Source: Marsupella aquatica
Lineage: Eukaryota; Plantae; Marchantiophyta
Length of the DNA: 64,000 nt
Direction: 5' to 3'
Assembly (NCBI GenBank): GCA_973895155.1
Contig: OZ316893.1
Location: 23,272,015-23,336,014, forward strand
Shown here: positions 2,833 through 42,040 of the stretch, piece by piece
Position numbering within the stretch: position 1 is the first letter of the stretch
Layout: the number at the start of each line of letters is the position of its first letter
Made by a program: the position numbers and the translations under genes
Notes under the pieces: model-generated
What the model saw: only the letters and a program-made list of their open reading frames with translations
Database searches by the model: none
Told to the model about the DNA's origin: nothing

Positions 2833-3175
2833 TGTTGAGCATAGACGACATTCGCAACGGCAAGCCCATGAACCATCCAACGTACAATAGTCAACACAGA
2901 GAGATACGTGATTCACCTCCACATGAGGTATGTCCACGGGAACACACAAGAGCTTTACTGCACTCTAGGCCGACCGGCCATACCAAGCATTCACAGCACA
3001 AGTTCTCCTTATCTCTCAACTAGCTCCGTAACAATGAGCCTAAGTTCCACCAGGGTCTGGCATCAGCCTTGGCTATATGCACACCAGCACTACCGCTAAC
3101 ATTAGCTAAGTCCTAACCCAAGTTAGACTAATTGTGGTTAGCTCATGAGTCACAAGACTAGAGCAATATCTAACA
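2833..3175 (-). mobile_element. Solo LTR related to the copia element at 8469-14256
   Basis: TGTT...AACA termini and a perfect 5-bp TSD TAAGT (2828-2832, 3176-3180). 2833-~3040 is a diverged reverse complement of the 3' ~210 nt of the copia LTR. Confidence 0.9.
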
Positions 3176-3273
3176 TAAGTGAAATCTAAGAATAAGTGTA
3201 ATTACCTAACAGAAATGATGTGTTTCTTTGGATTGCATGTAGTAGTCCTTACACTTTTATTTTTCAATGCCAG

Positions 3274-6200
3274 ATGTCTCATGGGAATGCCTCAAATGTC
3301 ATCAAATCAAGACATCACTATGGTGCACTACTATGTGACCAAATCTAGATTCCAACACCAGGGAAGTTTACTTCTGATGATTTGACCTGGTTTTATAAAG
3401 AAGCTTGGATTCCAAAATCCAGGCTGAATGATTTCTCAAAGGTGAGGAATGTAGTGAGAAATTTAACAGTTGCCTGGAAATAAAAGAGACAACAATAAGA
3501 AACAAAGAACGTGGTTGGTTGACCATAAGGTATCCTTGTTGTTATGGACCCAAAGATGTCAGGGGAGACGTACTTGAGAATCTACCAGAAAATAGAGTTC
3601 TTCAAAATGGAGAGAAACCACTACGGCAGACTACAAAAACTGGAGCATCTTTTAGGAGAGGTTGTAGATTAAGTTTTTCAGTGAATTTCAAGGAAATGGA
3701 ATGGCCCAATGCTTGCTCGCTTAAATTTACAAAGTTCAAACATGTTGACAAAATAGGGAATTTTGATCATGGTTGGGAGGATGGTCTGCATGGGATGTAG
3801 GGGCTCACATTGCCCCCATAATATCCATTGATCTTTGTGAGAGCATTGAGAGGCTCTTGCAAACAGGAGTCATTGAACTGGGAGTTTTAAAGGCCCAACA
3901 GGAAGAGCAACGTGAGCATAGAAAGAATTGAGTTCAATGATGATAGAGCCAATGTAATTTGGACAAGGGACATGGGACTAGATTTGAAGGATTTGAAGGA
4001 TCTGAAGAAAGTTATTAGCAATTGGAAAGTCACTAGGCAAGTGATGATGCTCTGGGATGCAAGTTGTGGGTGAAGGGGCTAATGGTTTTCAAGTGCTATT
4101 GTACCAAGAGAGGGATGAGAAGACACAAACACCATTTATGTTGGTGATTATGCTTCATGTTTTGACATATAGTAAAATTATACATAAATGTAGAGGGTGA
4201 AACTCAGAATAGTATGTTGAGTACAGCCACAAAAAAAGAGTAACCGTAAATACTCCCCTTCAAACTGCTAACTCACCAAACCTGAGGTTCAATTTACTAA
4301 ATGGTCCTTTAGAAATACTTTTTTGGCTGGGAACGTGTGGTAGGGAGTCTCATCCTTGTGACGGGAGGCACTCCACAGGGCTGCTGAACTTAGACTCTAC
4401 AGCCTAGCTCCCCCCTTCCCTGTGAAATGTAGATGTGGCGATGGAGCTTGCTTGTAGCTGATTGAGAACTCAGAGAAGTTGTCATCTCTTTAGAGAGATC
4501 TAGAGGCTTGAATCAAACTAATCCTAGCTCAATCAGTTTTCTTAGCCATCAATTTCTTGCAAGTACCGTAATGGATTTTGTGAATTCAAATAGTCCTCAT
4601 CAATCCGACAAGGATCACAATGAATGTGATAGCTCCTTAGACAGGAGTGACTCTGGATCAGATAGCTCTGTACATAGGAATGATGATGAGAATCTATTTA
4701 ACAAAATTGAAGACAAATGGATGTTGAAGGTCTACCACCGCACACAACATAGAAGCTCTTCATCAATTGCAGAGGCCATCCCGTGCGGAATATCAATCTC
4801 TTTACTTACGCATTTCAATCTTGACTGTTATCTCTTGTTACTCCTGGCGTTATCTCTTTGGATCCTCCTCTATCGGTTGTTGAGCGTCAAACCTCTATGG
4901 TAGTGCACAAAGTTGTCCATGGCAGCAGGCACAAAGTGTCTTACAGCAGTCCCGAGAGCGGTCCATAGTGTAAAACGTGAGAAACTCTAGGTGACTTAGA
5001 ATAAAGTCACTTTTGAAAACATTAGTGCACTTTCACTCGGTAAATGAACACGTAAAAGTCCATGTGGGGCTCAAACCTTAACTCACCTGGAACCTGTGTC
5101 AAAATAGCGGGCGACTCACCAGCATTTTGACACTTTATAGAAAACTCTATTACTATTGAAAAGTTTCAGTGGTGATTCTAACCTTGGCTCTCTAATGTTA
5201 TACAATATTCTTTGTACACTATGCTCTGATTTCATGAATTCCAACATGTTGGACTCTAATGGACACCCACAAAGAGCGAGATTTATTGCAAGTTTTGACT
5301 GTGGTCAAGGTAGCTGTGAAAAGAACCAGACAAGATGACCTACATTGCATGGGCTCTGGCTTGTTTTATAATGGATTGTGTAGTTGAAGAGAAAAATGTG
5401 TTAAGGTAATTTGACCCCAACAGAGTAAAAATTCCAATAATTATTCAAAATATCTTGTCATTATATTATATCATCTTACTCCATGTGCTTTGGCAGTGAG
5501 GTTTGGCCAGGTGCTCCAATCACTTTATGTGTGTGGCATGTGAGGAGAGCATGAACTAAAAACATACTGAAAAAGGGAGAGATCCACATTCCCATGCAAG
5601 AATGAATAAATAGCTTGGAGACCTCATGTACCACAAAAACAAAGGTAAACTCTGACCTTATTTGTCTTTTCTTTCACATAGAAGGCTCTGGCTTATTTTA
5701 TTCAGTATATATTTTATTTAGTGTTTATTCAGGGTATACCCTCTCGAAGAGTCCCTCATGGCATCATGGGGAGATGAGCAACCACTATTTGTGGAGTATT
5801 ACAAAACTTCCAGGCATTGTAAGATCAGTAAGTGGGTGATAAATTTCAGGACCTTCAACCATGCCAACCAGAACACCAATGGGGCGATTGAGAGATGGCA
5901 TGGAACTCTGAAGCAGTACTACAAGTGCGAAGAGAAATCTACTAAGGTAGGGCGGAAGGTTGTTTGGCTAGTAGAACAATTGATTAACCATCTTGAACAC
6001 CATTATTGGTATATGTCTTGTATGAAGTGGCAAGGGCGGGTCAGAAATCGGAAAATTGAAGACATCATCTGGAAAGCCATCTTGAAGGCAAGGACTATTC
6101 CTGTAGATGATGTGAAGTATGAGGAAGGCAACAATGTTGCATTTGTATGCAACCAGAAAAAACCAGGAGAAGGATACCTTGAATGGCGATACGTGTGTGT

Positions 6201-6990
6201 GCACCTGTGGATCCAACATGCATGCAGGGAAACACTTGTAAGCATCTGGTGAATTTATATCTTACCTAGCCACAACTGTAATTTCATATGAAATATGAAA
6301 CTAATTATATTGACAATGTCTCATATTACTTGTGTTTCTCTATTGATGTACAGATAAAATTATTGCTTATGAGTGGCATGTGTGACTCCAAGGTTCTTCA
6401 AACCTATCGAACTCACTATGGCACTATGGTGGGTGGGCTCACATTTGAGAGGGCACAGTGTGGCCAAAGCCTAATATGGAAGTGGCTAGCGTGACTTTGC
6501 CAATCAGACATCTAGCCAGCAATGATTCAGATGAGGGGAATGTAGATGAGCTTGTATTGGAGGATTGTGAGCAAGAAAAGGAGGATCCAACTTTCAACTA
6601 TGGGCATTATGAGAAAGTGTTAATTAAAGGAGATTTATGGTAAAGTTGAGAGCACTCCTCATTTGAATAGCATTGGCATGACTGGGTTGCTAAAATTACA
6701 GGATGAATTATTTTCACTTGGGGCTAGATATGACTCTGTACAAATTGGGCCAACTCCATTGTTGAAGATGCCAAATCCACCAGCATTTGAAATTGAGGCT
6801 GACTGTAGCTTGAAAAGGAAGGAGCCTTTTGTGGACAAGATGTGCAAGAGGGGAAGACACTTACAAAATTCACAGAGAAGCTCAACTTTGGCTGAGGCCC
6901 CAGTTCGTGCAGCTCCCTTTGTCAGAATTGTTACAACGTGAGAGCCGGATCATCAAAAACTTGACAAGGTAGCGTTGGCAAGTTTGGGTC
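3274..6990 (+). pseudogene. MULE (MuDRA/FAR1-like) transposase pseudogene with SWIM zinc finger
   Basis: Fragments read YPCCYGPKD..RRGCRLSF..H (N-terminal Zn domain), FIMDC, PITLCVWHVRRA* (CxWH motif), TNGAIERWHGTLK and CVCTCGSN..CKHL (SWIM, frameshifted by an ATGC duplication near 6218). Many stops and frameshifts; ends approximate. Confidence 0.8.
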
Positions 6991-8468: not shown

Positions 8469-8853
8469 TGTTGGGTATTTACTCTTACGTCTAGGTTAGG
8501 TATGACGTGGTTGGTACAACAACGTGGGTTGGTACAACTATGTGGTTAGGTATAACTACGTGATTAGGTACAACTATGTGGTTAGGTACAACTAAGTTGC
8601 ACACTATATCATAAGAGGCATGTGTGCTTGGAGAGGAAGGACCAAGGCTCATTGTTATGGAGCCACTTGAGAGATAGGGAGAGCTTACACTGTGGAGACT
8701 CGGTATAGCCGACGGGCTTAGAGTTCAGTAAAGCTCTCTTGTGTGTTCCCGTGGACGTAGCCTCAAGGAGGTGAACCACGTATCTCTTGTGTCGACTATT
8801 GTGCGTTGGATGGTTCATGGGCTTGCCGTTGCGATCGTCGTCTATGCTCAACA
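8469..8853 (+). repeat. Copia 5' LTR with ~5 x 18-bp tandem repeats in U3
   Basis: TGTTGGG...CTCAACA. GTGGTT(A)GGTACAACTAT-like units at ~8507-8596 precede a TATA-like CTATATCATAA. Confidence 0.97.
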
Positions 8854-8855
8854 AT

Positions 8856-8867
8856 TGGTATCAGAGC
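8856..8867 (+). promoter_or_regulatory. Primer binding site for initiator tRNA-Met
   Basis: TGGTATCAGAGC, 2 nt after the 5' LTR. Confidence 0.95.
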
Positions 8868-9367
8868 ATGCTTGGGAGGTGACGTGTGTTCGTGACGGGA
8901 TTTCATTATGGTTTTTCCAGCGTTGAGTGTCGGTGGATTTCCCGGAGTTCCGTCGCATGGAACTTGGAGTTTATGGGCTCAACGGATAGATCGGGGCAAG
9001 AGCTTTCTAACGGTGTGAAGAAATTGCTGAACGGAGCTCGTGGTGCAGAGAGATCTAAGTTTTCGTCGTTCTGGATTTTGTGAAGAAAGTTGGCAATCGA
9101 CTCGGAGGGAGAAGCGTCAAGTGTTTTGACTCAACGGAGAGATTGAGGCAAGACGATTATTTTGAGTCCGGGATTGGCTCTTTGATGCAAAGAGGAAGGC
9201 TAAGCAAAATCAATTACCTTGTTGGATTGGTGACGGCACCAAGTGCAATTGATCAACATTTGTTGTTGACAAGTATTGGACTCCTAGCTTTGTGGGCTAC
9301 GCGGCGGTGTTGAGTTTCGAGTTTTTTGAGAAGTTGTGAAAAACAACAATTTTTGTGATTTTCTCAT

Positions 9368-10408
9368 ATGAGTGATTCGGAGGAATTTTTCGAAGACGTG
9401 GAACTTGAAGCACGAGGATCACCGCGGCGGTTTCAGGGGCAGAGAGAGGAGCAGGAGGAAGAGCACGTGACACCGATACTATCACCGGTGCGGCGTGTGG
9501 TGGAGGAAGCAGTACTACTACCGGAGCTCACGGTAGTGCCAAAGAAGAAGATGGAGACTTTCAAGCTTGGGGGACCCAAGTATGAAGTGACAAAGTATGA
9601 TGGGCGCTCTGACTACTTGCTATGGGAGAAGCAGGTGAAGGGAGTGCTCTATGCGTCAGGGATGGGCCAACTGCTGAGCACTCGTGAAGACGATGTTGAT
9701 GAGAAACAATGGGACCGCATGCAGGAGCAGGGAGTGTGGTGTGTTACACTCTATCTCATGCCTCCCATCATCAAGCAGTTGGGTGCACATAAGGATTGCA
9801 TGTCCTTGTTTGCGGAATTGCAGAGCAAGTATCACCGCAAGGAGTTGTCGAACCGGCTCTACACTTCCTACAAACTCATGAGTTTCAGGATGAAGGAATC
9901 CGACACAAAGTTGCAAGACCATGTGGATGCTTTCAACGACATGGTCGTTGACTTGGAAAACCTTGGGGAGACTTTGAATGATGAGACGAAGGCTCTACAA
10001 CTTCTTAGTTCATTGCCTCCATCTTACCAGTCCCTATCACGAGTGTTGTTGCATCGTGATAGGGATACCATTTCATATAATGACGTGGTAAGTTCTCTGC
10101 TTAGTGATGATCTTCAGCAGAAGATGCACATCACATCACAGCCTTCATCATCTGGTGCTGCCCTCAATGTTAACCGTGGGAGGGGTATGCAGCGACCAAC
10201 TGGGGACCGTAGAACCCAGTTTAGATCTAAATCCAGATCTAAGTCCAAGGGTAAATCCCCTCAGAGGAGGCAGGTGACATGTTGGAAGTGCAACCAAGTT
10301 GGACACTTCAAGCGAGACTGTAAGGGAAAGGCAACGGAAACTTCATCGGCAAATGTGGCTAGGGCTGATGGAGAAGCTGATTTACTCAATGATGAATATG
10401 TTTTATGA
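9368..10408 (+). CDS. gag: Copia Gag (346 aa) with CCHC zinc knuckle
   Basis: KYDGRSDYLLW, LQLLSSLPPSY and CWKCNQVGHFKRDC motifs; ends at TGA 10406-10408. Confidence 0.93.
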   Translation: MSDSEEFFEDVELEARGSPRRFQGQREEQEEEHVTPILSPVRRVVEEAVLLPELTVVPKKKMETFKLGGPKYEVTKYDGRSDYLLWEKQVKGVLYASGMGQLLSTREDDVDEKQWDRMQEQGVWCVTLYLMPPIIKQLGAHKDCMSLFAELQSKYHRKELSNRLYTSYKLMSFRMKESDTKLQDHVDAFNDMVVDLENLGETLNDETKALQLLSSLPPSYQSLSRVLLHRDRDTISYNDVVSSLLSDDLQQKMHITSQPSSSGAALNVNRGRGMQRPTGDRRTQFRSKSRSKSKGKSPQRRQVTCWKCNQVGHFKRDCKGKATETSSANVARADGEADLLNDEYVL

Positions 10409-13400
10409 AGCCGGGGGTATGCCCTGTGCACGTCATCTAGGAGAGCAGATGATGTGTGGATTCTTGATTGTGCTTGCTCTTTTCATATTTGTTACATTCG
10501 TGAGTTTTTCAGTTCTTACTCTATTTCAAACGGTTCAGTTCTGATGGGAAATGATCACTCCTGTCAAATTGAGGGAATTGGGTCTGTGAAGATTCAAATG
10601 TTTGATGGCGCTGTGCGCACAGTGTCCGGAGTCAGGTATGTACCTGGCATGCGTAAGAATCTGATTTCACTCGGTGTGTTGGATTCAAATGGTCATCAAT
10701 GGAGCGTTATTGATGGTGAACTTCAAGTCAGGTCGGGAGAGACAGTGATTTTGAAGGGAAGTAGGCAAAAGAATTTGTATGTGTTACAGGGCAATACTGT
10801 ATGTGGAGAGGCCAATGTAACCAAGTCTCACGAGGAGATGACTCAACTGTGGCATTCACGGCTAGGCCACATGAGTGAGAAGGGTTTGGCTATCTTACGG
10901 AAGAATGGACTCATTTCTGATTTGCAATCTTGTAAATTAGAGTTTTGTGAGCATTGCATTCTTGGAAAGCAGCATCGTCGTGCTTTTGGTGTTGGAACTC
11001 ATCGTTCCAAAGCGGTTCTTGAGTACATACATAGTGACGTGTGGGGTCCATCCCCGACTCCCTCACACTCTGGAAAGTTGTACTATGTATCATTTATTGA
11101 TGATTACTCAAGATTTGTGTGGATTTATTTCATGACGCATAAGTCTGATGTCTTGTCCATTTTTAAGAAGTGGAAGGCCCAGGTGGAGAATCAGACTGGA
11201 AACACGATCAAGTGTTTAGATACAAGGGTGAAGAGTCTGAGGTCAGACAACGGCGGGGAGTACACTTCAATGGAATTTGAAGAGTACTGTTCAGAACAGG
11301 GGATAACTCGCCATCTCATCATAGTTTATACTCCGCAGCAGAATGGTGTCGCTGAGAGGCTCAATCGGACACTGTTGGAGCGGTCACGGAGTATGTTGAG
11401 CCAATCAGGTTTACCACAAGAATTTTGGGCAGAAGCTATCAATACCGCAGCTTATTTGGTAAATCTTTCTCCTTCTAGTGCTATCAATTTCAAAACGCCA
11501 TTTGAGATGCGCTATAAGCGGCAAGCAGACTATCATGGCTTGGTAGTTTTTGGAAGTGATGCATATGCTCTCACACCGAAGCAGAATAGGACCAAGTTGG
11601 ATCCTACCTCCAAGAAATGTGTTTTTCTTGGGTACCAGAGTGGTGTGAAAGCCTATAGGCTATGGGATCCTATTGCCTGTAAGCTCGTTGTCAGTAGGGA
11701 TGTTTCCTTCAATGAATCCAGATTATTGAAGGAGGGGGAGAATACTCAGGTCTCCCGTACTGACAAAGGAAAATCTCCTATCCCGGATCTCGTTGAGGGG
11801 GAGATTGGTTATGAGGTGCATGACCGGAGAGAAGGAGTTGCTCCAATTATGGAGCTGGTTCCTGTGCCAGAAGAACCAGAGGAGTTTGTTGATGCTGGTG
11901 AGCAGCAAGTAGATGTTGTTGAGCTTCAAATTGTACCAGCACACGCAGATCAACCGGAGTCATCGGCTAGAAGAACATCTGGTCGCACTGTACGCGCTCC
12001 ACCAAGGTATGGACAGTGGGTTGATTCATCTCAACTGCAAGAGGATGATTTTACAGCTGATGATGAGGGTGATGCGTTAATTTTGGAAGAAGGGGAACCT
12101 TCTTCATTTCATGAGGCAAGTGCTTCAAAGGAGAAGCAGAAGTGGACTGCAGCAATGCAAACGGAGATGCAGTCACTAAAGGACAACAAAACTTGGGAGC
12201 TTGTTAAGCTGCCTAAGGGTCAGCAAGTGGTGGACAGCAAGTGGATTTACAAGTTAAAGGATAATTCCATAGGAGGTGGATCGAAGGTCTACAAGGCTAG
12301 ATTGGTAGCAAAGGGATTCACACAAGAGAAAGGTGTGGATTACAATGAGGTCTTCTCACCAGTTGCTAAGTACTCTACAATACGACTATTGTGTGTACTT
12401 GTTGTAATATTTGGTCTGCTGCTAGATCAGATGGATGTTGTCACAGCTTTCCTCTATGGCACATTGGAAGAGGTGATCTTCATGAGACAACCGCTAGGTT
12501 TTGTGAAGAGAGGACAGGAGGAATTGGTTTGCAGATTGCTGAAATCCTTGTATGGGTTGAAGCAGTCACCAAGACAATGGAACAAGCGGTTTGACGATTG
12601 GATTCGGTCACAAGGTTTTCACAGAAGTGTATTTGACCCTTGTGTGTATTTGAAACCGGTAAAGAATGTTGTCTTTGGGTTCATTGTTTTAGTACTTTAT
12701 GTGGATGATATGCTAATTGCAGCCAAGGATAGGTCTGAGATTGTTAAGCTCAAGGCACTGCTTAGTGTAGAGTTTAAGATGAAGGACTTAGGGCCAGCTA
12801 AGAGGATTTTGGGTATGGAGATCACTAGGGACTTGGAGGCTGGCAAGCTATGGTTGACGCAGAGCAGTTATGCGAGGAAGGTAATTGCAAGGTTCAACAT
12901 GGGGAATAGCAAGCCAATAAGTACCCCGTTGGCTCCACACTTCAAGTTATCATCAGCGTTCTGTCCTACGGATGACACAGAGAAGGGGTTGATGTCAAAG
13001 GTTCCGTATGACAAGGCAGTGTGGAGTCTCATGTATTTGATGACTTGCACTAGACCTGATCTTGCCATGGCTATGGGCAAGGTGAGCAGGTACATGTCGA
13101 ATCCAGGGAAGGTACACTGGGAAGCAGTGAAGTGGATTATCAGGTACTTGAAGGGTACCGTGGATCATGGTCTTTTATTTGATGCGAATGCAAAGAATGC
13201 TAAATCATTGATTGGCTATGTTGATTCTGACTATGGACAAGATTTGGACCGAAGGAGATCAACAACAGGATACGTGTTCACACTTGGCGGTGGATGCATA
13301 AGTTGGAGGTCTACTTTGCAGAAGTGTATTGCTCAGTCTACTACAGAAACGGAGTATGTTGCAGCTGCGGAAGCAGCAAAGGAAGCGATTTGGTTGGATA

Positions 13401-13681
13401 GACTTATCACTGAAATGGGATTGCCACAGGGGAATGTGAAGCTCCATTGTGATAGTCAAAGTGCGCTCCACCTTGCTGTGAACCAGGTGATGGACAGCAG
13501 AGTGAAGCACATTGACGTTAGGTACCATTTTATCAGGCAGGCTGTGTCTGATAATTTGTTTGAGCTAGTCAAGATTGATGGTAAACTCAACCCGGCTGAC
13601 GCATTTACCAAAGTGATTCCTTTGGAGAGTTTCTCTAGACACCGTGACGTATTGCAGGTTTTGCAATTGCATCACAAGTAG
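10409..13681 (+). CDS. pol: Copia Pol (protease, integrase, RT, RNase H), same frame as gag, open from the codon after the gag stop
   Basis: WILDCACSFH (PR), LWHSRLGH..CEHC, HSDVWGP, LRSDNGGEY, PQQNGVAERLNRTL (IN), LYVDDML (RT), GYVDSDY..RSTTGY and KHIDVRYHFIR (RH). Confidence 0.95.
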   Translation, partial: SRGYALCTSSRRADDVWILDCACSFHICYIREFFSSYSISNGSVLMGNDHSCQIEGIGSVKIQMFDGAVRTVSGVRYVPGMRKNLISLGVLDSNGHQWSVIDGELQVRSGETVILKGSRQKNLYVLQGNTVCGEANVTKSHEEMTQLWHSRLGHMSEKGLAILRKNGLISDLQSCKLEFCEHCILGKQHRRAFGVGTHRSKAVLEYIHSDVWGPSPTPSHSGKLYYVSFIDDYSRFVWIYFMTHKSDVLSIFKKWKAQVENQTGNTIKCLDTRVKSLRSDNGGEYTSMEFEEYCSEQGITRHLIIVYTPQQNGVAERLNRTLLERSRSMLSQSGLPQEFWAEAINTAAYLVNLSPSSAINFKTPFEMRYKRQADYHGLVVFGSDAYALTPKQNRTKLDPTSKKCVFLGYQSGVKAYRLWDPIACKLVVSRDVSFNESRLLKEGENTQVSRTDKGKSPIPDLVEGEIGYEVHDRREGVAPIMELVPVPEEPEEFVDAGEQQVDVVELQIVPAHADQPESSARRTSGRTVRAPPRYGQWVDSSQLQEDDFTADDEGDALILEEGEPSSFHEASASKEKQKWTAAMQTEMQSLKDNKTWELVKLPKGQQVVDSKWIYKLKDNSIGGGSKVYKARLVAKGFTQEKGVDYNEVFSPVAKYSTIRLLCVLVVIFGLLLDQMDVVTAFLYGTLEEVIFMRQPLGFVKRGQEELVCRLLKSLYGLKQSPRQWNKRFDDWIRSQGFHRSVFDPCVYLKPVKNVVFGFIVLVLYVDDMLIAAKDRSEIVKLKALLSVEFKMKDLGPAKRILGMEITRDLEAGKLWLTQSSYARKVIARFNMGNSKPISTPLAPHFKLSSAFCPTDDTEKGLMSKVPYDKAVWSLMYLMTCTRPDLAMAMGKVSRYMSNPGKVHWEAVKWIIRYLKGTVDHGLLFDANAKNAKSLIGYVDSDYGQDLDRRRSTTGYVFTLGGGCISWRSTLQKCIAQSTTETEYVAAAEAAKEAIWLDRLITEMGLPQGNVKLHCDSQSALHLAVNQVMDSRVKHIDVRYHFIRQAVSDNLFELVKIDGKLNPADAFTKVIPLESFSRHRDVLQVLQLHHK

Positions 13682-13860
13682 AGTTTTCTTAACATTCATT
13701 GTAATTACTGATATATGCTCTTCCTCATTCCTATGTATTAGGCTACGGCTTAGTTCTGGTTTGCTCTAGTTAGAGAGGGAAACCGGTTTGGTTTTTGTCC
13801 AGAACTTCCCGCTGAGGGATCATATACATTGGCAGTATTACTCTCCCCTAGACCAGAGTC

Positions 13861-13870
13861 AAGGGGAAGA
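13861..13870 (+). promoter_or_regulatory. Copia polypurine tract
   Basis: AAGGGGAAGA, 1 nt before the 3' LTR. Confidence 0.9.
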
Positions 13871-13871
13871 T

Positions 13872-14256
13872 TGTTGGGTATTTACTCTTACGTCTAGGTT
13901 AGGTATGACGTGGTTGGTACAACAACGTGGGTTGGTACAACTATGTGGTTAGGTACAACTACGTGATTAGGTACAACTATGTGGTTAGGTACAACTAAGT
14001 TGCACACTATATCATAAGAGGCATGTGTGTTTGGAGAGGAAGGACCAAGGCTCATTGTTATGGAGCCACTTGAGAGATAGGGAGAGCTTACACTGTGGAG
14101 ACTCGGTATAGCCGACGGGCTTAGAGTTCAGTAAAGCTCTCTTGTGTGTTCCCGTGGACGTAGCCTCAAGGAGGTGAACCACGTATCTCTTGTGTCGACT
14201 ATTGTGCGTTGGATGGTTCATGGGCTTGCCGTTGCGATCGTCGTCTATGCTCAACA
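13872..14256 (+). repeat. Copia 3' LTR
   Basis: 385-bp direct repeat of 8469-8853. Confidence 0.97.
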
Positions 14257-30000: not shown

Positions 30001-30858
30001 AGCTTTCAAAAGAGAGAAGTCTGATTAGGAAGAGAAGCTGTTGGACAAATATGATAGGTTTTACAGCTTGTATTGTTTAGATTAGATTAGATTTTCTCAC
30101 AAAATCAATTGTGGACCCATTCAGCCATGGCCTGAGCAATTTGACATTTTTTCAATTGCCACATGAATACTGTCTTTGCTTTGCAGGCCAAAGTCGACAA
30201 AATGGTTGTCACAAGCAGTTGTCAAAATCAGACCTTGTCGCTACATGCAACCAAATTCTCAAGCTACAAGAGTCAATAGTCAATCCGTGGCAAGTCCATT
30301 TGAGACCAGATCAATGTCTGACCAAATGAATTGTATCAATTCATTAAGTTCAAGTTCCGGCCATAGCTAGCAGTTTGCCTGAATTGCAAAAGGCCAGAAA
30401 TCTTACTCCATATGCCAATTACCCATTAACAAGGAATTTATCAAGTTAGTTATTAGTCATTGTTTATTATATGAAAACTACTTTTCAAATTTTTGAATTT
30501 AAATTTGAAAACGGGATACGTAACTAAAACCGTTTTACCCGTCTTGCTCTTTGCATTTCTAAGTTTTCACATTTCTTTTTACGGCATGGCGTCCCAAAAT
30601 TTACACCCAAATTGACGCAAACACGAATGAAAACTGTAAATTTGATTCACAAAACTGATGAGTCTTGTTTGTTGCGGTTGTTGTTGACATGGCACGCTCT
30701 GGTGCAAGAATTTTGGAAGGGCCCTCTAGTGGGGTCCGTAACTAAAAATGATCTGATTATGAATATCAAGTCATTGCAATTAAAGTCAAATTTTGGTAAA
30801 TGTGGTCCATGGGGGTTTCAAAGACCAACCTTGTGGTCCATGGGAGTTTCAAATAAGG

Positions 30859-31216
30859 TGTCATGCCGAGGGACAGTGCCTCTTATGCACATCGGCATGT
30901 CCCTCGCCTGCCCGCTAGGTATGTAGTTAGGGCTAGTGTACTACCTGAGTTAGCGACATGTTCTTGTAGCAAGTCTGGGCCGTTCTTGAAGCAAATGTGC
31001 TTGTTAGTGTGACGCCAGGAATTTGCTTGCTTAGGGCATGTCTTTCTTTGTGGGTTTTCAGTTCTTCTTGAATCGCTGTTGACAGAGCTCAGACAGTGCT
31101 CGTCGGTTCCGTACACGGGATTCACACAGTGATTCGTTAGATGCTCCCGGCCGATCTTGGCATCCTGCCGGTTTTTGATTCGATTTCAGTACAATTGTTT
31201 CTCTTACGCCTTTTAT
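30859..31216 (+). repeat. Repeat A1 (358 bp)
   Basis: Matches 35623-35980 with one C/T difference seen (GGTTTTTGATT versus GGTTTTCGATT). Confidence 0.97.
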
Positions 31217-31229
31217 TCAAGAAGAACTG
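31215..31229 (+). promoter_or_regulatory. Putative self-priming primer binding site
   Basis: ATTCAAGAAGAACTG is the exact reverse complement of CAGTTCTTCTTGAAT (31059-31073) inside repeat A. No TGG-starting tRNA PBS follows A1. Confidence 0.8.
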
Positions 31230-32822
31230 TCGAGTTAGCAGTGACGGGAAGAATATTGCTCGTGGCGATTTCGACAATTTTTGGTGAAGCCATTGCAATT
31301 TCTTTGACGAACATTGGAGCGACGGAATGAAAGTTATGGGTTTATGTGGTTATGTGTATACTTAAGTGTATACACATATCCATGCTTCCGAAGGGGTCAG
31401 GAGTTCCCTTTCCGGTTGCATCCGCGACTCCTTTGTTGCTTCCGACTGTCACTGCCGTTTGCCGCACGACCACCTCCCGACTGCAACCCGTGGTTTGTAG
31501 GCCGCTGGCCCTTCACATTCCGGCCACAACCTGCTGCTGCCGACGTTGCATCAACCGTTGCCTCGACTGCTTTTGGGGCCGTTTTGTGTTTGTTGCCACT
31601 TTTCGGCCACGGCTGCCGTTGAGCCCGTTTTGTTGCCTCGTGACGCCCTGCACAGGCCGTGCATAGGGCACCATGCCCTTGCCTCGGCTGTATCTCCCTT
31701 TACCGGCCGTAGTCCCTCCTCAATCCGGGATGTTTCTTCCCCTTTTCGGCATTTTCTCGCCCGTTTTTCCTGCCTCGACTCCCTTTCTTTTTGCCCTGCC
31801 ATAAGCAAGCGAGAGGACAGAGGGCACGAAGCCCTATGGAGAATTAAAGCATGGGGGAAGGGGAGCCGAGCACAAGGCAGCGCGAGTGTGCCAGGAGAGG
31901 GCGCGAAGCCCTATGCTATAGTAAAGAAGGAGGGGGAGCGAGGGTGCCAGGAGAGGGCACAAGGCCCTAAGCAACATTGAAGCAGGGGAGGGGAGTACAC
32001 TCGACTCCCTTGCCTTCGGGCATACTGTCACTAGGGCACGAGGCCCTATGGAGTAATTAAAGCAGGGAGGGGGAGGAGTACACTTGACTCCTCACACGGG
32101 AGTCTTTTGCCAGGGCACGAGGCCCAAATTGCATTGAAGGAGAGGAGGGGGGGAGTTCGTAGCCCCTTTTCGGGAGCACATAAGGTGGGGCACGAAGCCC
32201 TATGGAGGGCTCATGCCATTAAGAGGGCCCCATTTTTTTTGCCCTGCCTCGCGACGTCTTTTCTCCTCTTTCCGGCCACCTACGAGCTTGCCTCGGCTAT
32301 TTTCCCCTTTTTTGGCCTTTCTCACTTTTTCGCCGTGCGACGATCGACCTGCTGCCAGTTCCCGGGTCCACATCGGGGCCCGATGTATACACTTAATCGG
32401 GCCCCATGTTTATACATTTGAAAAGGCCAATGTATACACTTAAGGGGGGCCCAGGTTTACGTTTTTAAGGGCCCATTTTTCTGGATTTCTTTGTTGCCGC
32501 CACGTGTCATTTGCATAAAGCTGAGGGCCCAGCATATTCATCAGACAGTCAATCCAGCAAGCACAACACCAGTCCAATTGGAGTTTTTAAGGGTCTTTTC
32601 TTTGCCGACGGTTTTTCTGTGTGTTTACACATTCGACACATTTCTGCCTCGCACTGTTTATTTCCTAGCCTTGGGGCTGCCATTTCTTTTTCTTGTCAGT
32701 TTCTTTCCCATTGGCACCCAAGTGAGCATGCAGCATGTCAACCGACGCGCCAGGAGGTAGCAACACATCGCCACTGACACCCAGGTACCATTTACGGAGT
32801 GATCCACGACCGTGCCAATTTC

Positions 32823-35404
32823 ATTGGAGACTCAGACATCTTCACTCTTGTGGATCTAAGGCAAGGCTTTAACCAGATTTTGCTGCTTGCAAAGGATCGC
32901 AAGAAAACAGCTTTCCATGGTAGTAACCAACTATGGGAGTGCTTGGTGATGCCATTTGGCTTGAAGAATGCGCCCATATTCTTTCAAAGAGTCATGGACC
33001 AGGTTCTTCAAGGTGCTGAGTTTCTGAAATGCTACATTGATGATGTGTTGGTCCACAGCAAAGGATTTGACCAACATCTACTTGACCTTGAGGAGCTATT
33101 CATGAGGCTTAAGAAGGTGAACCTGAAGATACACCCCAAGAAGTGTGAATTTGCTGTCAGATCAGTAGTATACCTTGGGCACCGCATTCTTCCAAATGGA
33201 ACCATGGCTCACTGGGCCAAAGTGGTATCCATCCTGGAAATGCCCACTCCTACTGATGTTCGCACTCTTAGGAGCTTTATTGGGTTGTGCAATTACTACC
33301 GGATCTACATCAAAGATTTCAGTACCATTGCACATCCATTGTACTCTTTGTTGAAAAAGAATGTGACTTGGACATGGAGTACAGATGCTGAGGCAGCATT
33401 TGTCACTTTGAAGGAGAAGCTCTCAGAATACCCGGTGCTGAGAAGACCTGATTTCAGCAAGGTCTTTGTGCTACACACAGATTGGAGTGCCCTTGGGATT
33501 GGTGCCATTCTGGGCCAGCATGATGAGGAAGGTAAAGAGTACGTCATTGCCTATGCATCCAGGAGCAACAATCAGGCAGAGAGTCATTATTCTTCTTATG
33601 AGGGTGAATGCCTTGCTGTTGTGTGGGCTGTCATACATTACAGGCCCTACCTCTATGGGACCAGGTTTGTTCTCTACACCGACCACCAGCCCTTGAAGTG
33701 GTTGATGACCAACGACAAGCTTACTGGCAAGCTTGCTCGTTGGGCGCTCATACTCCAGGAGTATGATTTTGAGGTAATTCATAGGCCTGGTGTGACACAT
33801 CAAAATGCTGACACTATGTCCCGCAGCCCTTTGATTGCCTCTGATGATTCCTCAGATGCACGGCAGGATTTTGACCAGGTTTCCATCCTGCCTACATTTC
33901 ATGCATCGACCTATCTTGCTTTGCTGCCATGCTATGTTGTTGACCAACCTGTGGTGGACATATGGGAGGACAGCGACACTCTGAGATTTCTACAGCATGG
34001 GAAGTACCCCACACATATTATTGCTGCCCAGAGAGACCGAATTCAGCAAAGGTCCAAGCGCTACTTGTGGAAGGGAGATCATCTCGTGCGCTGCTTGCCA
34101 GACAGGGAAGTGGTGGTTCCACCCATTCATGAGAGGGTTGGCCTTATCCGTAAGGTACATTCTGAGCTTGGTCATTTTGGCGTTAAGAGAACTTACAGCC
34201 TCTTGGTCCCTCATTATCATTGGAGAGGCATGCATGGCCAGGTTCGAGATGTTATTGCCCGGTGTGAACAGTGTGATAGGGTGAGGACTTCTTTCACATC
34301 TCGGCAACCCACACTTCATCCACTCCCCATTCAGGGCATGTTTTATCGCTGGTCATGTGATTGGCTGGAGAATTACCCCTCACGTCTTGGGGTAATCTCT
34401 ACATCATGATCATGATAGAGCATTTCTCCAAGTGGATAGAACTTGTGGCATTGCCGGATAAGACCTCCCGTAGCACCAGCCAGGCATTCCTGCAACAAGT
34501 TCTCAGTCGTTTTGGAGCTTGTGCAGAATGTCTCACTGACCAGGGCTCAGAGTTTAGAGGAGAGTTCCAGGAGTTGCTTGATCAGGCCCTCATTGATCAT
34601 CGTCGGACATCACGAGATCACCCACAGGCAGATGGCTTGGCAGAACGCATGGTTCAGACATGCAAGAAGGGTCTTCGGAAGATCTGCCTCACCAAAAACA
34701 AGGAGGATTGGGACCTGGCCTTACCCTACATTGCCATGGGGTATAGGATGTCCAGACATGCATCACTGTCTAACTTTTCTCCCTACTTCTTGTTGTTTGG
34801 TCGTCACCCAGTTCCACCTTCTGCTATTGCTGCTCACATGCTTCAGGTGGTGGACTTGGATTCAACTGTGACTTGGTCTGATGTGATCTCTGAGAGGGCT
34901 GCCCTATTCAGGAGGGTTATGCCCATGGCCATGGAGAATTTGGCCATTGCACAACATAGGGACACACTGCGTTATGCACACACACGAGGGGGCACTTTTC
35001 AGCCCAAGGTCAGGAAGTTTGATGTGGGAGATTTTGTGTACTTGCAGCGGCAAGCTAACGACATCCTGGACACCTCTACTAGTCGTACTATTCTCAGGGT
35101 TAAAGCTATTCGACCGTCTGGAGTGCTAGAGTTACAAGGGGCAGATGGGCGCACAATTGCTGACAATGCCAAGAATTGCGCCCCTTGTCATCTGCCTAAC
35201 CTAGATCCCACCATTGTGACTTCTACTTGGATTCCACCTGTGGACTACCCTTGCAAGGTGTGTTTGCGAATTGATGATGCTGACCAGATGCTGCTGTGTG
35301 ACAATTGCAATGGAGGGTACCATCTTTTCTGCCTTCGGCCTGAACTTACCCAGGTGCCAGAAGGGTTATGGTTTTGCCCTTCTTGTGCTCCACGTGCTAC
35401 CTGA
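32823..35404 (+). pseudogene. pol: 5'-truncated gypsy pol: RT (partial), RNase H, integrase, PHD finger; 1-bp frameshift near 34361
   Basis: VDLRQGFNQI, MPFGLKNAP, YIDD (RT); HTDWSALGIGAIL, YEGECLAVVWA, TDHQPL (RH); HSELGH..CEQC, WSCD/LAGELP, TDQGSEF, GLAERMVQ (IN); CKVC..LLCDNCNGGYHLFCL..WFCPSC (C4HC3 PHD). Confidence 0.93.
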
Positions 35405-35436
35405 ATTTTCTTCAGCCCTCCTTTTGGCTGTGGTCT

Positions 35437-35444
35437 GGGGGGGG
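35437..35444 (+). promoter_or_regulatory. Polypurine tract (G8) directly abutting repeat B1
   Basis: GGGGGGGG|ATACAGAGG, 33 nt after the pol stop codon. Confidence 0.75.
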
Positions 35445-35620
35445 ATACAGAGGTTTACACCTCCACTACGTACATACCACTTCATTTGCTTTTTCTTGGC
35501 ACTTGTGAATGTGATTGGACTTTTTCTATGCATGTTGGTTGCTAGCAGCTTGCACATATGCCTTGCCGGTGACTTGTATGTTTTCGATACACTATGGCTA
35601 CGATACTATATGTCACGACA
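35445..35620 (+). repeat. Repeat B1 (176 bp)
   Basis: Appears identical to 35981-36156. Confidence 0.97.
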
Positions 35621-35622
35621 GC

Positions 35623-36156
35623 TGTCATGCCGAGGGACAGTGCCTCTTATGCACATCGGCATGTCCCTCGCCTGCCCGCTAGGTATGTAGTTAGGGCTAG
35701 TGTACTACCTGAGTTAGCGACATGTTCTTGTAGCAAGTCTGGGCCGTTCTTGAAGCAAATGTGCTTGTTAGTGTGACGCCAGGAATTTGCTTGCTTAGGG
35801 CATGTCTTTCTTTGTGGGTTTTCAGTTCTTCTTGAATCGCTGTTGACAGAGCTCAGACAGTGCTCGTCGGTTCCGTACACGGGATTCACACAGTGATTCG
35901 TTAGATGCTCCCGGCCGATCTTGGCATCCTGCCGGTTTTCGATTCGATTTCAGTACAATTGTTTCTCTTACGCCTTTTATATACAGAGGTTTACACCTCC
36001 ACTACGTACATACCACTTCATTTGCTTTTTCTTGGCACTTGTGAATGTGATTGGACTTTTTCTATGCATGTTGGTTGCTAGCAGCTTGCACATATGCCTT
36101 GCCGGTGACTTGTATGTTTTCGATACACTATGGCTACGATACTATATGTCACGACA
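35623..36156 (+). repeat. Repeat A2 (35623-35980) joined without overlap or filler to repeat B2 (35981-36156)
   Basis: Junction CCTTTTAT|ATACAGAGG. A1 is followed by T and B1 is preceded by G, so the boundaries are unambiguous. Confidence 0.97.
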
Positions 36157-37659
36157 AAGGGACTACACCACACGACCTGCAATTACCTCTGAAATGCACT
36201 TATACACGGTGCTTTTATGCATGGTAGAGTGTACACCGTGTGTCATTCATGTAAGGAAGAAAGGTTACCAATGTGTAACCTTTTCTATTAGGTGCTACCA
36301 TTTCCATAACCCTATGCCCAGAAAGTCTTACCCATAATATTTGTTCAGGGTAGGTATCCTAAAGTATAATACACAGTTGCGTCACTTTTTAGAGTGGTCG
36401 TCATTCAAATTTGAAGTGCATAAAAGTTTAAAAATGTGATCAAAGGTAAGTAATAAAATCAAAATGTGGATTGAGTTTAGTGTGACACAAAAAGTTACAC
36501 CATTGTCCAAGACAAGCAAAATAATCACACGAAACACCCCCAAAAAGTGAAAGACTTTAATTAATGCACGACAATCAATGCACGAGGATCAAGGAGGATA
36601 CTCCCTCCAGGCCTCCATGATCCGTATTGTACATACTCAGAGTATTCTACATATTCAATATTATGTGCAACATAGTTTTGTATAATAGTGATAAGAGGAG
36701 TTTAATTGTTAATAATATTTTGGTCACTTGATAAATAAAAATTGTTCTCCCAATATTTGTGGTGATTTTTAGAGTCATTTGCACTATCATTTTCAATGCC
36801 AAAAAACAACAGTAATAAGGCCCAAAGACATAGTGAAACGCATGACACGGACGTTGATGGCAAGTTGTCGGGCGAGGGGCACACTTGCAATGTAGGGCAG
36901 CCCCTCGAAGGGCTCCAGTCGCGCACGGGTGGGGAGGGAGGGGGCAGCGAGCGAGTGGAGTGATGATGAAATGGGGAAAAGGGGGAGGTTAAGGTTTAAA
37001 AGGAACATAAGAGGAAAAAAAATTTAAAAGGGGGGGAAAACACCTCTCATTTTGTTATACTTTTGTGGTTGTCATAGCCAGTGGTTTGTGCAATGACGTC
37101 TTTTATTCAAAGAATTTTTTTGTGCAAGGAGAAAAAAGAAAAAGGGAACTTTTGTGGATGCCGTGGCCAGTATTTTGCACAATGATATCTTTCATTCAAC
37201 AAAAAGTTTTGTGCAATTTTTATTCAATGATATCTTTTGCACCATGAGCAATTTCTCAACAACATCTTTAACCAAACAACATCTTTTATGCAACGCATGG
37301 GGATTGAAAGGATAGCGATAAAATGGTCATCTTTGCTAAACCCTAAAACCTTAAACCTGAAACCAATAATATAACATTGCGCCAATGTATAGAGTGTCGC
37401 CATTCAAATGCAAGGGCATTTTGGGTAAAAAAACAAACAAAGAAAAAGACTTGCTCCTTCTCTCCTTGACTTTTTACTTCATAACATCTTTCACATAATG
37501 ACAACTTGGATGAAACGACACCTTTTTTTTCTTTATAACATCTTTTACTTCTCGATATCTTTGGCATAATGACACATTTTTTTTATCAACATCTTTCACA
37601 TAATGGCATCTTTGGCAAAATGACTTCAAGGACATCTTTTGTGTAATGCACGTGTATTT

Positions 37660-38570: not shown

Positions 38571-40168
38571 AACCCAGACCAAAGTGTCATTACCCCATAC
38601 ATAACCGAAGGGCCAAGCCTGTCAAGGGGGCATCACCATATTCTCTCGAGGAAGAGACGGGGCGTCATGGGCAGAGTTGAAGACATTTTCATCCGCGTCC
38701 CAACCAACCTGACCCCACATCGTAGACGAGCTTTTCAACTTGGAGAGGTGGGGTTGTGGGTTTATTGAGCAGATTTGTGAGTCTGGTGGATCAATTCCAC
38801 CCCAACTGCGGCCATCAGTCACTCTTGGGGAGAATTTGAGGATTTGAGAGGTTCACATTGAGGGGATGGAGCCGGCTTTCCATCCGGGTCCTGAAACGGC
38901 AACATTTGTAGAAGGACTTTTCAACTTGCGGAGGGATGTTTCTGGGTGAGAGTGAGCCAGTTCGTGGAACTGGTGGATCCACTCCAGCTCAATCGGAATC
39001 ATCACACTTTGGAAAATTTGAGGAGTTCTAAAGGTTCACACATTGAAGGCGATGGAGTTTTCTGGGTACATCCTTTCATCCGGGTCCTGAAATTACCACA
39101 TTTAAAAAGATTTGAGAAGAGCCTTCATGTTGTCGAGGTGGGTTTGTGGGTGAGTGAGGAGGTTTGAGAGACTGGTTCCATTCCAATTGTGATCATCACT
39201 CTTGGAGAATTTCAGGAGTTGGAGACGTCAACATTTGGGCGGTACAACATTCTCTCTTTTCGTTTTTTTTCTGTCTACAAACCTCAACAGGAGTGACTCA
39301 GTCTCTGCGTCTGATCTTCGCTGCTTTTCACTGTGTTTTCAGCTCGACGATCCAGTAGTTGACCTACGACGCTGAGATCCTTCTCGTCACAGTAGCCCAA
39401 GGAATTCAGTGATCGGGCTGATGCAGAAATAGAGATTTAGGCGGTACACCAAACTGCCAAAGGAAAGGTTCTAGGAGAAGACGAGAAAAGAGAACTTGAA
39501 GGCGCTTTGGTCTTCCTCATAGAGAGCAACCCAAGAGGGAGGACCTTGGCTCAATCTCCCACAAAGCTGTGATGCTGCATGAGCTGTCTCTAGCTCTGTA
39601 ACAAGTGAACACGTGAAAGATTCGGAAACAGGTGTTCACGCCATGGTGCAAACTTTGGTATGTTCGCCCAGAACGCTCCCCCTAATATTTTTATGGCAAA
39701 GTATATGAAAACAAAATTGATATATGCCGTTGTTCTGTTACATAGCTCAATGTCTTGTGCGTGTTACGTTTGCCCGTGGACTGTTCTGTTGAACATTTTT
39801 ATCTCTATCCTGTCCCAGTTTAGCGTGCTGGGCTACGAAGAACAATAATCTTTTTATGAAGGAAGTTTGTTCCTACAGTTTGTCGAGATCAAGAGCTTTG
39901 ATCTATTGAAGTTTCTCGCAGAGCCCTAGCCAAGGCGCAGCTGCCTACTGCTGATTCATAACACCCGAATCTATTTGCAATTCGTGATTGCGCCTCCCGT
40001 CTGTTTGACAAGCTCTATGGCAACCTTTCAGGATTTTTGACCTACTTGAAATGATGTGGAATGCAGACCATCAATTCAGAGAAGTTGTCAAAAGCAGTGG
40101 CGGAGCAGAATGAATGAATTGACATTGTAGATGCCCTGAACATGCTCTAGACTGGTAGAACGTGCAAA

Positions 40169-42040
40169 ATGGCGATTCGGTTTTTCCCACAATTACCAGC
40201 TTGTCATCAGCATTTAGAGAAGGCTGCTGACCAGGCAAGAGTATCAACGGGATATTCAATTGCTAGTGCATTGGTCCCTTCAGCTTTGGCCTCTGAATTG
40301 CATCTGGGTGCGTCTCGCCGGGATATTGGAGCCGGTGCACGATTCGTAACAGAAGCGAGAAGCTCCAAACTCGGAACGCACGCTACTGGAGTTTCAACAT
40401 GGATACAGAACAGGCCGTCTTCTTCTTTTTCAACCTCATGTAGAGTTGCCTCCAACATTGATCTGAGTGCTGTCGACAATCCGGCAGTGGGAGGGAGTTT
40501 TTCTAACAGCTCTGAGCCCAACAAAGCAGTTCTGGAGGCGTTGACGAAGGTTTGTACCGGACCCACACAGACGAGGCCTTTAGACGAGGCACAAGCTTTG
40601 AAAGTCCTTGATACGATTCTTCGATCAGTCAAAGGAGAACTACCAGAAGAGGATCAAGTGTCTCCAGCACAGATGGGTGCCTTTTTTGGGGCAATGACAT
40701 TAAGGGCAAATTCATTCCCAGCAGCCACGAATTGGAGTGAAGGAGAACGGAAAGCCCTGGCAGAATATTGGCCGTCTTTCGTGAAATTCCTCCCCCAAGA
40801 AGTTCTCTTTTTAGCAGATCCTGAGTGTGCACTTTTCGGAGATGGCTACCATAAGGGCCAAATCTTCCGTGGGAATGGGGTTGCCGAGGCACGGTTGGTG
40901 GGGGCGTTGAGGGAGGTGCTAACAGGTGCTCATCTCGGGTACGAGGAAGTCTATGGACTTCTCAGAGATCTCCCTCTGCATAATGGTCTTAGCCGTCCTA
41001 ATGGAACTTCAAATGTTGTCAGTGAAGCCCTGGTTGCAGCCTTCTTGATTGTTCAGCGGATGAATAAGGAGACAGATGCTGAGTTGAAGGCCTACTGTAT
41101 GGCTTTTGATGATGAGCTTGGCACTTTGCCTACAGCTAATGTCAGGTCATTAACCCACTATGGTGAACCTTATGATGGAAACACACGTTTCTTTCGAAGC
41201 ACTCTTTTTGTGGCCGCTGTCCGTGCCAGTTATGGAGAGGCTTGCTTGCTATATGGGGCTGACTGGATGCCCCCAAAGGGGGGCATCAATGAGGAACAGG
41301 CCATTAAACATTTAGGAGGAGCAACAAACTTAATGCCTTCACAGGCTGCAAAGCTTCTTGAGGATGATGAAGTGGGTTTTGCTTATGTAAGTCAGCGAGA
41401 AGCTCGTCCATCTTTATACTCCCTGGTTGGCTTGAGGAAGCACATAAAGAAGCGACCACCCATAGCAACCACAGAGAAAGTCCAGCGTTATGTCCGGGCA
41501 ACTGGTAGAGAAGCAGCAATGGCAGGGTTTTATCATGAGGGTTATGAGGACCCACTATTGATGCTGATACGAAGAAGAGGTATGGATGCTGGTCTTGTGA
41601 TTAAGGGTGAAGAGGGAGCTTTGTCTCTCTCCACGAGATCCAAATCAGCTGATGCTGTCGTGAAGGGTAGACCATTAAACTATTGTACTGGCTTCAGGCC
41701 AGGGGATCCGGAATGCATTCAAGTTTGTGACGGTGTGTCACGTGAGTCGTTCAGTTTGGAGATCGTTGCTTCGAATTATGGATTTGAATCTACTCCGACA
41801 CCAAGAGTCGACAGGTCAATTGCAAAAAATGTTGATCTAGGGCTTGCAGCTTTACGAGGTGAGAAAGGTGCTGCTTATGATCGGATTGTCCTAAACGCAG
41901 CTATGGCTGACCATCTGCTGGGATGTGAGGGTGCATCTGACCCTCTAATAGCTATTACACGAGCAAAATATGCTATTGACAGTGGGAAGGCACTACAACA
42001 CTTGATGGCATACCTGGAGAAAAGCTCGAAAATTAAATAA
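40169..42040 (+). CDS. Anthranilate phosphoribosyltransferase-like protein (glycosyltransferase family 3, At1g70570-type), probable organellar transit peptide, single coding exon
   Basis: 623-aa uninterrupted ORF with Ser/Ala-rich N-terminus, GPTQTRPL, QMGAFFGAMTLR, HYGEPYDGNTRFFRSTLFVAAV, IKKRPPIATTEK, KGEEG and AYDRIVLNA. Confidence 0.9.
   Translation: MAIRFFPQLPACHQHLEKAADQARVSTGYSIASALVPSALASELHLGASRRDIGAGARFVTEARSSKLGTHATGVSTWIQNRPSSSFSTSCRVASNIDLSAVDNPAVGGSFSNSSEPNKAVLEALTKVCTGPTQTRPLDEAQALKVLDTILRSVKGELPEEDQVSPAQMGAFFGAMTLRANSFPAATNWSEGERKALAEYWPSFVKFLPQEVLFLADPECALFGDGYHKGQIFRGNGVAEARLVGALREVLTGAHLGYEEVYGLLRDLPLHNGLSRPNGTSNVVSEALVAAFLIVQRMNKETDAELKAYCMAFDDELGTLPTANVRSLTHYGEPYDGNTRFFRSTLFVAAVRASYGEACLLYGADWMPPKGGINEEQAIKHLGGATNLMPSQAAKLLEDDEVGFAYVSQREARPSLYSLVGLRKHIKKRPPIATTEKVQRYVRATGREAAMAGFYHEGYEDPLLMLIRRRGMDAGLVIKGEEGALSLSTRSKSADAVVKGRPLNYCTGFRPGDPECIQVCDGVSRESFSLEIVASNYGFESTPTPRVDRSIAKNVDLGLAALRGEKGAAYDRIVLNAAMADHLLGCEGASDPLIAITRAKYAIDSGKALQHLMAYLEKSSKIK

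Follow-up and report, generated by a model that had tools for sequence, protein, structure and literature searches.

The DNA analyzed here is a 64,000-nucleotide stretch of the liverwort Marsupella aquatica (contig OZ316893.1 of assembly GCA_973895155.1, forward-strand positions 23,272,015 to 23,336,014), referred to below as the window. At positions 30855-36160 it carries a retrotransposon with gypsy-type enzymes whose direct repeats are split into two parts, A and B. Including the 4-bp target site duplications (TSDs), the element reads AAGG-A(358)-internal-G8-B(176)-GC-A-B-AAGG, which agrees to the base with the layout given in an earlier note on this DNA. The two copies of A (358 bp) differ at a single position (31176 T, 35940 C), and the two copies of B are identical over 176 bp, giving one mismatch in 534 repeated bp. 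The element starts with TGTCATG (in A) and finishes with CACGACA (in B); the internal part (31217-35444) closes in eight G, and A2 contacts B2 directly at 35980/35981, with zero intervening bases. No extra copy of A or B was found in the 64-kb window, which is also free of N. The features of the element are as follows.

30855-30858, + strand: left TSD, AAGG, read directly; 4 bp is the rule in the family
30859-31216, + strand: repeat A1, 358 bp, left integrated end, with putative promoter, R and U5 inside
31059-31073, + strand: predicted self-primer and putative 5′ end of the transcript, complementary to 31215-31229
31217-31229, + strand: predicted primer-binding site for self-priming of the Tf1 type, adjoining the end of A1
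31230-32821, + strand: non-coding internal stretch with short degenerate repeats; no Pfam match in its four open reading frames (ORFs)
32778-34409, + strand: pol remnant in a stop-to-stop frame, with 5′-truncated reverse transcriptase (RT), ribonuclease H (RNase H) and the H2C2 region of integrase
34361-35404, + strand: core of the integrase with its C-terminal PHD finger, by Pfam, in a frame other than that of the pol remnant
35437-35444, + strand: G8 tract, predicted plus-strand primer, adjoining the start of B1
35445-35620, + strand: repeat B1, 176 bp, ending in CACGACA, read directly
35617-35626, no strand: attachment (att)-like junction GACA-GC-TGTC, putative integrase cut site, palindromic over 10 bp around a spacer of 2 bases (35621-35622)
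35623-35980, + strand: repeat A2, 358 bp, read directly
35981-36156, + strand: repeat B2, 176 bp, right integrated end, joined to A2 at the putative end-to-end junction of the complementary DNA (cDNA)
36157-36160, + strand: right TSD, AAGG, read directly

Pfam searches identified RT, RNase H, H2C2, rve and PHD domains in this copy. The frame at 32778-34409 matched RVT_1 (E 6e-26), RT_RNaseH (E 1e-38) and Integrase_H2C2 (E 1e-13), and the frame at 34361-35404 matched rve (E 6e-12) and PHD (E 4.5e-12). Neither a tyrosine recombinase nor a chromodomain gave a Pfam match in the window copy; a PHD finger stands at the C-terminus of the integrase instead. A frameshift near 34360 divides the integrase. 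The stretch at 31230-32821, which contains five degenerate 39-bp repeats (31819-32223), takes up the region that in whole relatives encodes gag, protease, methyltransferase and the first part of RT; the methyltransferase region has been deleted. Likeness to relatives begins only at about 32822, so that the copy is a young, non-autonomous one. Contigs from four runs of two studies (X1 to X4) were aligned to the non-redundant internal-B-GC-A stretch; in X1 and X2, their depth, which is not read as copy number, was far lower over 31230-32821 than over pol, suggesting a small non-autonomous subfamily. With gag and protease gone and its integrase split, the window copy was likely moved in trans.

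Layout and junctions across copies, runs and families

The ends of the element were examined in the contigs of the four runs. Contigs exited at 35620 and entered at 35623 in X1 (19 and 14 contigs, respectively), X2 (9 and 6), X3 (15 and 15) and X4 (13 and 10), and the flanks at these exits and entries were unrelated (agreement 0.39-0.49). The joint from A to B (35980 to 35445) was present in all four runs, in 8, 7, 2 and 3 contigs, respectively. Among the joints listed (15 of 18), none led from the G-tract into A, and in a second listing (15 of 60) none led from B into the primer site.

Relatives were also collected by a scan of metagenomes. The best 80 of 532 confirmed loci were used, with 69-85% identity in the best segment, and merging of near-identical loci left 69 that were distinct. 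The 3′ end of these read B-A-B in 30, B and then flank in 29, and B-A with a broken B2 in one; the remaining nine were cut or without B. One locus tallied by the script as B-flank (L032) in fact reads B-A-B, and its flank is common to L026. At visible 5′ ends, B lay beside A1 in 0 of 21. Copies with both ends complete comprised eight of the form A..BAB and ten of the form A..B, and ordinary AB..AB or BA..BA copies were not found among the metagenome loci. Eighteen copies had legible TSDs (L029 was excluded as illegible): 12 matched at four of four bases, four matched at three of four, and two (L009 and L022) had none. One solo AB carried a TSD of its own. The earlier note had predicted that every copy would start with A, finish with B and carry 4-bp TSDs, as is borne out by the contigs of X1 to X4 and by the 12 full TSDs, and that none would read B-GC-A..B-GC-A, as indeed none did. 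Two of the forms that it expected, A..B-GC-AB and A..B, were recovered, but the third, AB-GC-A..B, was not.

Two further peculiarities were seen among the metagenome copies. In L024 (9173-9335) and L045 (11590-11749), B2 lacked one of the 15-base sub-repeats of B1, and the inner CA was followed by the TSD. An inverted copy of A was located upstream of the element in L072/L073 (near 2720-3270) and in L047 (1-260); the copy in L072/L073 lies directly against a shortened A1, and B2 is broken there, possibly as a product of autointegration or rearrangement.

The methyltransferase piece of the metagenome family matched Sphagnum proteins at 84-87%, and because of this resemblance the second family likely comes from peat moss (the moss-type family below). 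A scan of prokaryote genome bins gave 14 loci of the clade. The retrotransposon contigs L081-L087, which lie inside bacterial and archaeal bins, are likely eukaryotic contamination. In this set, ACA-GC-TGT was found downstream of the integrase in five of the eight distant loci examined. The order in L082 was G-tract, B (106 bp), GC, A, B and flank. Its sister L081, which is 55% identical to the window integrase and contains an unbroken 1047-aa RT-RNase H-integrase-PHD frame, reads B-GC-A and then other sequence, as does L083; both are possibly collapsed assemblies, and B-A-B was seen in that group only in L082. No relatives were found in scans of viral contigs. Given that B-A-B is present in the window family, the metagenome family and L082, the layout is a trait of at least three families.

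The signals for reverse transcription were then compared with the integrated ends. In standard replication of a long terminal repeat (LTR) element, a G-tract before B and a primer site after A give B-GC-A at both cDNA ends and leave B2 uncopied. Among the 80 loci, the G-run led into the start of B 70 times and into the start of A 0 times, and the end of A led into the primer site 20 times and the end of B 0 times. The positions of primer site and G-tract therefore define the LTR as B-GC-A. The integrated TG/CA ends with their 4-bp TSDs match not the ends of B-GC-A but the palindrome GACA-GC-TGTC in its middle, and the spacer between B and A was 2 bases in 32 of 32 relatives. Both points had been made for the window copy before, with the polypurine tract at the start of B and the primer site at the end of A, and the joint counts and the conserved palindrome uphold them.

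The primer itself is predicted to come from the element. The 13 bases past A1, together with the last two bases of A, are a perfect complement of 31059-31073 (15 of 15; the best of 300 shuffles reached 9). A matching self-primer pair was present in 19 of 20 relatives, 119-136 bases from the end of A; two base changes relative to the window are compensated on both sides in relatives, and the distant L081 has a 13-base self-complementary pair of its own. This complementarity points to self-priming of the Tf1 type. The fold of the predicted leader (31059-31260) was not significant against shuffles (z -1.12); in its best prediction, the self-primer is paired to a second purine-rich site just downstream of the primer site, an alternative to priming, and the fold therefore speaks neither for nor against self-priming. 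No transfer RNA genes were found in the window.

The junction between A and B was scored in 30 copies, that is, 32 minus L032 and the solo AB. It was blunt in 12, short of 2 bases in 10 and of other form in eight. Hence 18 of 30 were non-blunt, whereas all 20 junctions of A with the primer site were intact (Fisher P 8e-6). Most A/B junctions deviate by 0-4 bases, and L016/L020 has a large deletion there; the length variants in X1 to X4 had one or two bases added or lost. Some of the added bases are identical to the base that comes next in the primer site (X1) or to the final G-tract base (L060, L066), and such bases are what leftover primer would give. When junction type was mapped on a pol tree of 29 copies, from which L071 with its deleted pol was omitted, no signal was detected (P 0.62 and 0.90), and a control indel in A clustered on the same tree (P 0.002). 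In 23 copies, B1 and B2 were 91% identical within a copy compared with 86% between copies, and the B2s were mutually no closer than the B1s. Because the A/B junction varies without tree signal, it is likely remade in each cycle. The starts of the primer site and of B have 2 bases in common in the window and in the moss-type family and 6 in L081, so the joining may proceed by microhomology, via host repair or an RT jump. Of the blunt joining of cDNA ends first proposed for the window copy, the fresh joining is supported by the behavior of the junction, but the join is not always blunt (12 of 30).

A proposed route and its rivals

We propose that this family joins the ends of its B-GC-A cDNA, likely into a circle, and that the integrase then cuts at the upstream internal CA-GC-TG; to this reading we assign a probability of roughly 0.62. 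The wider statement, that an internal att site is cleaved and the ends are freshly joined, whether the circle comes first or the joining follows insertion, we hold to be quite probable. In detail, transcription would start within A1 and run into A2, self-priming would occur as in Tf1, and the cDNA would take the form BgcA-internal-BgcA. Its ends would be joined anew each cycle, either through host end-joining or when RT jumps across short shared sequence, into a molecule that is likely circular, and the DDE (Asp, Asp, Glu) integrase would cut and insert the internal CA-GC-TG of the upstream repeat. Copies with B only would be dead ends; their source would be a circle with one repeat, cutting at both junctions or subsequent recombination between B1 and B2.

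In a finished circle the two att junctions are equivalent, so that AB-GC-A..B would be expected as often as A..B-GC-AB. This mirror product was seen 0 times against eight A..BAB copies (binomial P 0.008), and the symmetric circle of the earlier note, in which either junction is cut with equal odds, is therefore at variance with the counts and needs amending. According to the standard model of reverse transcription, the upstream repeat is completed first. The integrase might engage the upstream junction before the molecule is finished, and such early binding to the first-finished repeat would explain the one-sided A..BAB outcome.

Several points weigh against the proposed route. The mirror product is missing, and early binding as the reason for the bias is an added assumption and our best guess. 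The circle, the cDNA ends and the transcript are all deduced from genomic sequence. The 80 loci are old copies of one family, in short-read assemblies able to collapse B-A-B to B. Two of 18 copies, L009 and L022, have no TSD, and the end picked by eye for L024 and L045, where the TSD comes after it, is that of an inner sub-repeat of B. The pol tree is near star-shaped, with 7 of 26 branches well supported, and thus has limited power. Slippage at ATAT after insertion could make some of the short junctions. The scan for a tyrosine recombinase in whole copies, described below, covered ORF pieces of at least 110 aa.

The circle route with an integrase cut, as originally conceived, accounts for the internal-cut structure and the TSD, but joining after strand transfer gives the same product. 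In that case linear cDNA would be cut at the upstream B-GC-A, its halves would be inserted, and the host would then join the loose A end to the start of B on the chromosome. Layout, TSD and a variable A/B junction are all predicted equally by this sequence of events, and the TSD-less L009 and L022, as well as the large junction deletion in L016/L020, could be failed repairs. However, each insertion would then involve a double-strand break, whereas the TSDs match or nearly match in 16 of 18 copies and the A/B junctions mostly vary by only 0-4 bases; this route also requires the same one-sided bias. We consider it unlikely. Less likely again is a route in which B2 and the A/B junction are copied from RNA that runs through B2, in the style of tyrosine-recombinase elements, with the integrase using ends regenerated from the internal B-A. 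Such copying would explain why A..BAB is the sole form seen, and PAT, Ngaro and VIPER share this layout, as given in the available portion of the source (PMC6681497). An inherited junction should, however, follow the tree, and the A/B junction does not; it is the one junction that varies, and the G-tract and primer site are apparently placed where the standard LTR scheme would not copy B2.

The window copy is deleted and frameshifted, as might be expected of a one-off rearrangement, a nested insertion or a misassembly of an ordinary LTR element. Yet the same joints recur in four runs of two studies, B-A-B occurs in 30 of 69 loci of the second family and in a third family (55% integrase identity), and the junctions of an ordinary element, in which the G-run meets A and B meets the primer site, occur 0 times in 80 loci. 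For the family, a one-off origin is refuted by the joints in X1 to X4, the tally of 69 loci and the distant L082 layout, and we regard this explanation as extremely improbable. The layout is real, family-wide and old. We judge it slightly better than an even bet that, in a whole gypsy clade ranging over chlorophyte algae, mosses and liverworts, the ends that reverse transcription makes and those that integration uses have become uncoupled, and that an end-joined, circle-like route is obligatory there. A cytosine methyltransferase and a PHD finger are also found in many members of this clade.

The wider clade, known elements and significance

Among named proteins, the integrase came closest to those of Calypogeia fissa, a liverwort (88-89%), with Sphagnum magellanicum at 66% and Klebsormidium nitens at 50-56%, and longer matches were found in Haematococcus, Pleodorina, Tetrabaena and Coleochaete. 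The best solved relative was Ty3 Gag-Pol (E 1e-94, for the close relative P0121). The catalytic Asp, Asp and Glu are kept across the clade, being split by the frameshift in the window copy: the second Asp and the Glu could be scored in 104 of 128 relatives, and the first Asp matched in 94 of these 104. The usual spacing between the second Asp and the Glu is 35 residues. It was 34 in 103 of the 104 scored relatives and in the window integrase, compared with 35 in a copia element of the window; the spacing of 34 may be linked to the cleavage of a junction in place of free ends. That element is a Ty1/copia element (8469-14256; labeled from domain order by eye) with ordinary 385-bp LTRs that are 99.5% identical, and a single in-frame stop separates its gag (9359-10408) from its pol (10409-13681). 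Elsewhere in the window, a 629-aa uninterrupted frame (40151-42040) resembles what we take to be a host gene of the anthranilate phosphoribosyltransferase type, and a 176-aa frame (5722-6252) is presumably a transposase fragment.

Examination of 67 ORF pieces from 12 whole copies revealed a zinc knuckle, an aspartic protease and a C5 cytosine methyltransferase (PF00145, E 1.4e-9), and no match to a tyrosine recombinase was found in them. The methyltransferase stretch lay upstream of RT in 42 of 80 loci, and precedes RT in the moss-type family (L009, 3439-4443). It was also present in proteins named from Calypogeia and Sphagnum, and P0253, from the cluster of P0121, likewise has a methyltransferase domain. 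In P0155, P0160, P0216 and P0225 it lies between RNase H and integrase; the two positions imply two arrangements within one integrase-PHD clade. No Klebsormidium name appeared among the methyltransferase matches listed (best 120 of 224).

The element is gypsy by its enzymes and not canonical by its repeat layout. It shares with canonical Ty3/gypsy elements the order RT-RNase H-integrase, a DDE integrase, TG/CA ends, 4-bp TSDs and a G-tract. Canonical elements differ in having two full LTRs with the primer site and polypurine tract at TG/CA, and such junctions were found 0 times in 80 loci. The closest precedent is KnitGypsy-Dnmt3 of K. nitens, for which a figure legend describes gypsy domains together with DIRS-like repeats in the order A-coding-B-A-B (de Mendoza et al. 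2018, PMC5890265, Fig. 4c). This element is like ours in repeat order combined with gypsy domains, and its cytosine methyltransferase has a counterpart in pol of whole relatives of the window copy; the K. nitens proteins that match the window integrase-PHD at 50-56% are candidates for KnitGypsy-Dnmt3 itself. In the portion of that paper available, it is described for K. nitens only, with no TSD, junction, primer site or mechanism (PMC5890265), whereas here the layout is found in bryophyte-type families and a further distant family. A streptophyte Gypsy-DNMT3 is mentioned in passing in the accessible part of a 2026 preprint. No account of a mechanism for split-repeat gypsy elements was found in the literature searched, outside of which lie Repbase and most subscription journals. 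The gypsy A..BAB architecture is already in print, and its mechanism is apparently undescribed; the earlier note, which knew of no gypsy precedent but could not rule one out, needs amending as to the architecture. Two candidate precedents were rejected: Chlamydomonas Gypsy-7a, described in the text seen as having a PHD in Gag-Pol but near-ordinary LTRs, and REM1, whose description in the available text lacks the split-repeat layout (PMC2774666).

The predicted complementarity makes the self-priming site like those of Tf1/sushi and Tcn1; the arrangement is known for Tf1 (PMC7175516) and predicted for Tcn1 (PMC6317226), according to the sections of those papers seen. Tcn1 and the Tf1/sushi chromoviruses differ in carrying a chromodomain at the integrase C-terminus, where the window clade has a PHD finger and no chromodomain match. 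The split direct repeats A..BAB were earlier held to be typical of tyrosine-recombinase elements, and the order A1 ... B1 A2 B2 reported for PAT-like and Ngaro-like elements and for VIPER in the accessible text agrees (PMC6681497). These elements use a tyrosine recombinase; the window clade has a DDE integrase, TG/CA ends and varied 4-bp TSDs. In the IS3 family (IS911), a DDE enzyme integrates from abutted ends a few bases apart on a circle, but these are DNA transposons without an RT step, and the junction is made by transposase. The integrases of foamy virus and HIV-1, also DDE enzymes, cut the palindromic end-to-end att junction of 2-LTR circles, which in the parts of the papers at hand is made by circularization and is a side route (PMC1180852, PMC4372172). 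Here, in contrast, the repeat itself encodes the att site internally, and the ends that have just been joined remain within the integrated element.

As far as its available description goes, REXdb was built from LTR_FINDER calls that demand paired LTRs, TG/CA and TSDs (PMC6317226); an A..BAB copy would presumably fail this filter, so that an abundant clade is perhaps under-annotated in bryophytes and algae. With the present data, the gypsy elements that bear a methyltransferase come to include proteins whose names point to Calypogeia and Sphagnum. If the proposed route is true, the clade would provide a structural bridge between gypsy elements and the tyrosine-recombinase elements of the same repeat order, and a natural, heritable case of a DDE integrase that uses an internal junction rather than the cDNA ends. 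It would also bear on whether 2-LTR circles can be genuine integration precursors: what is a by-product in other LTR elements would be the obligatory route in this clade.

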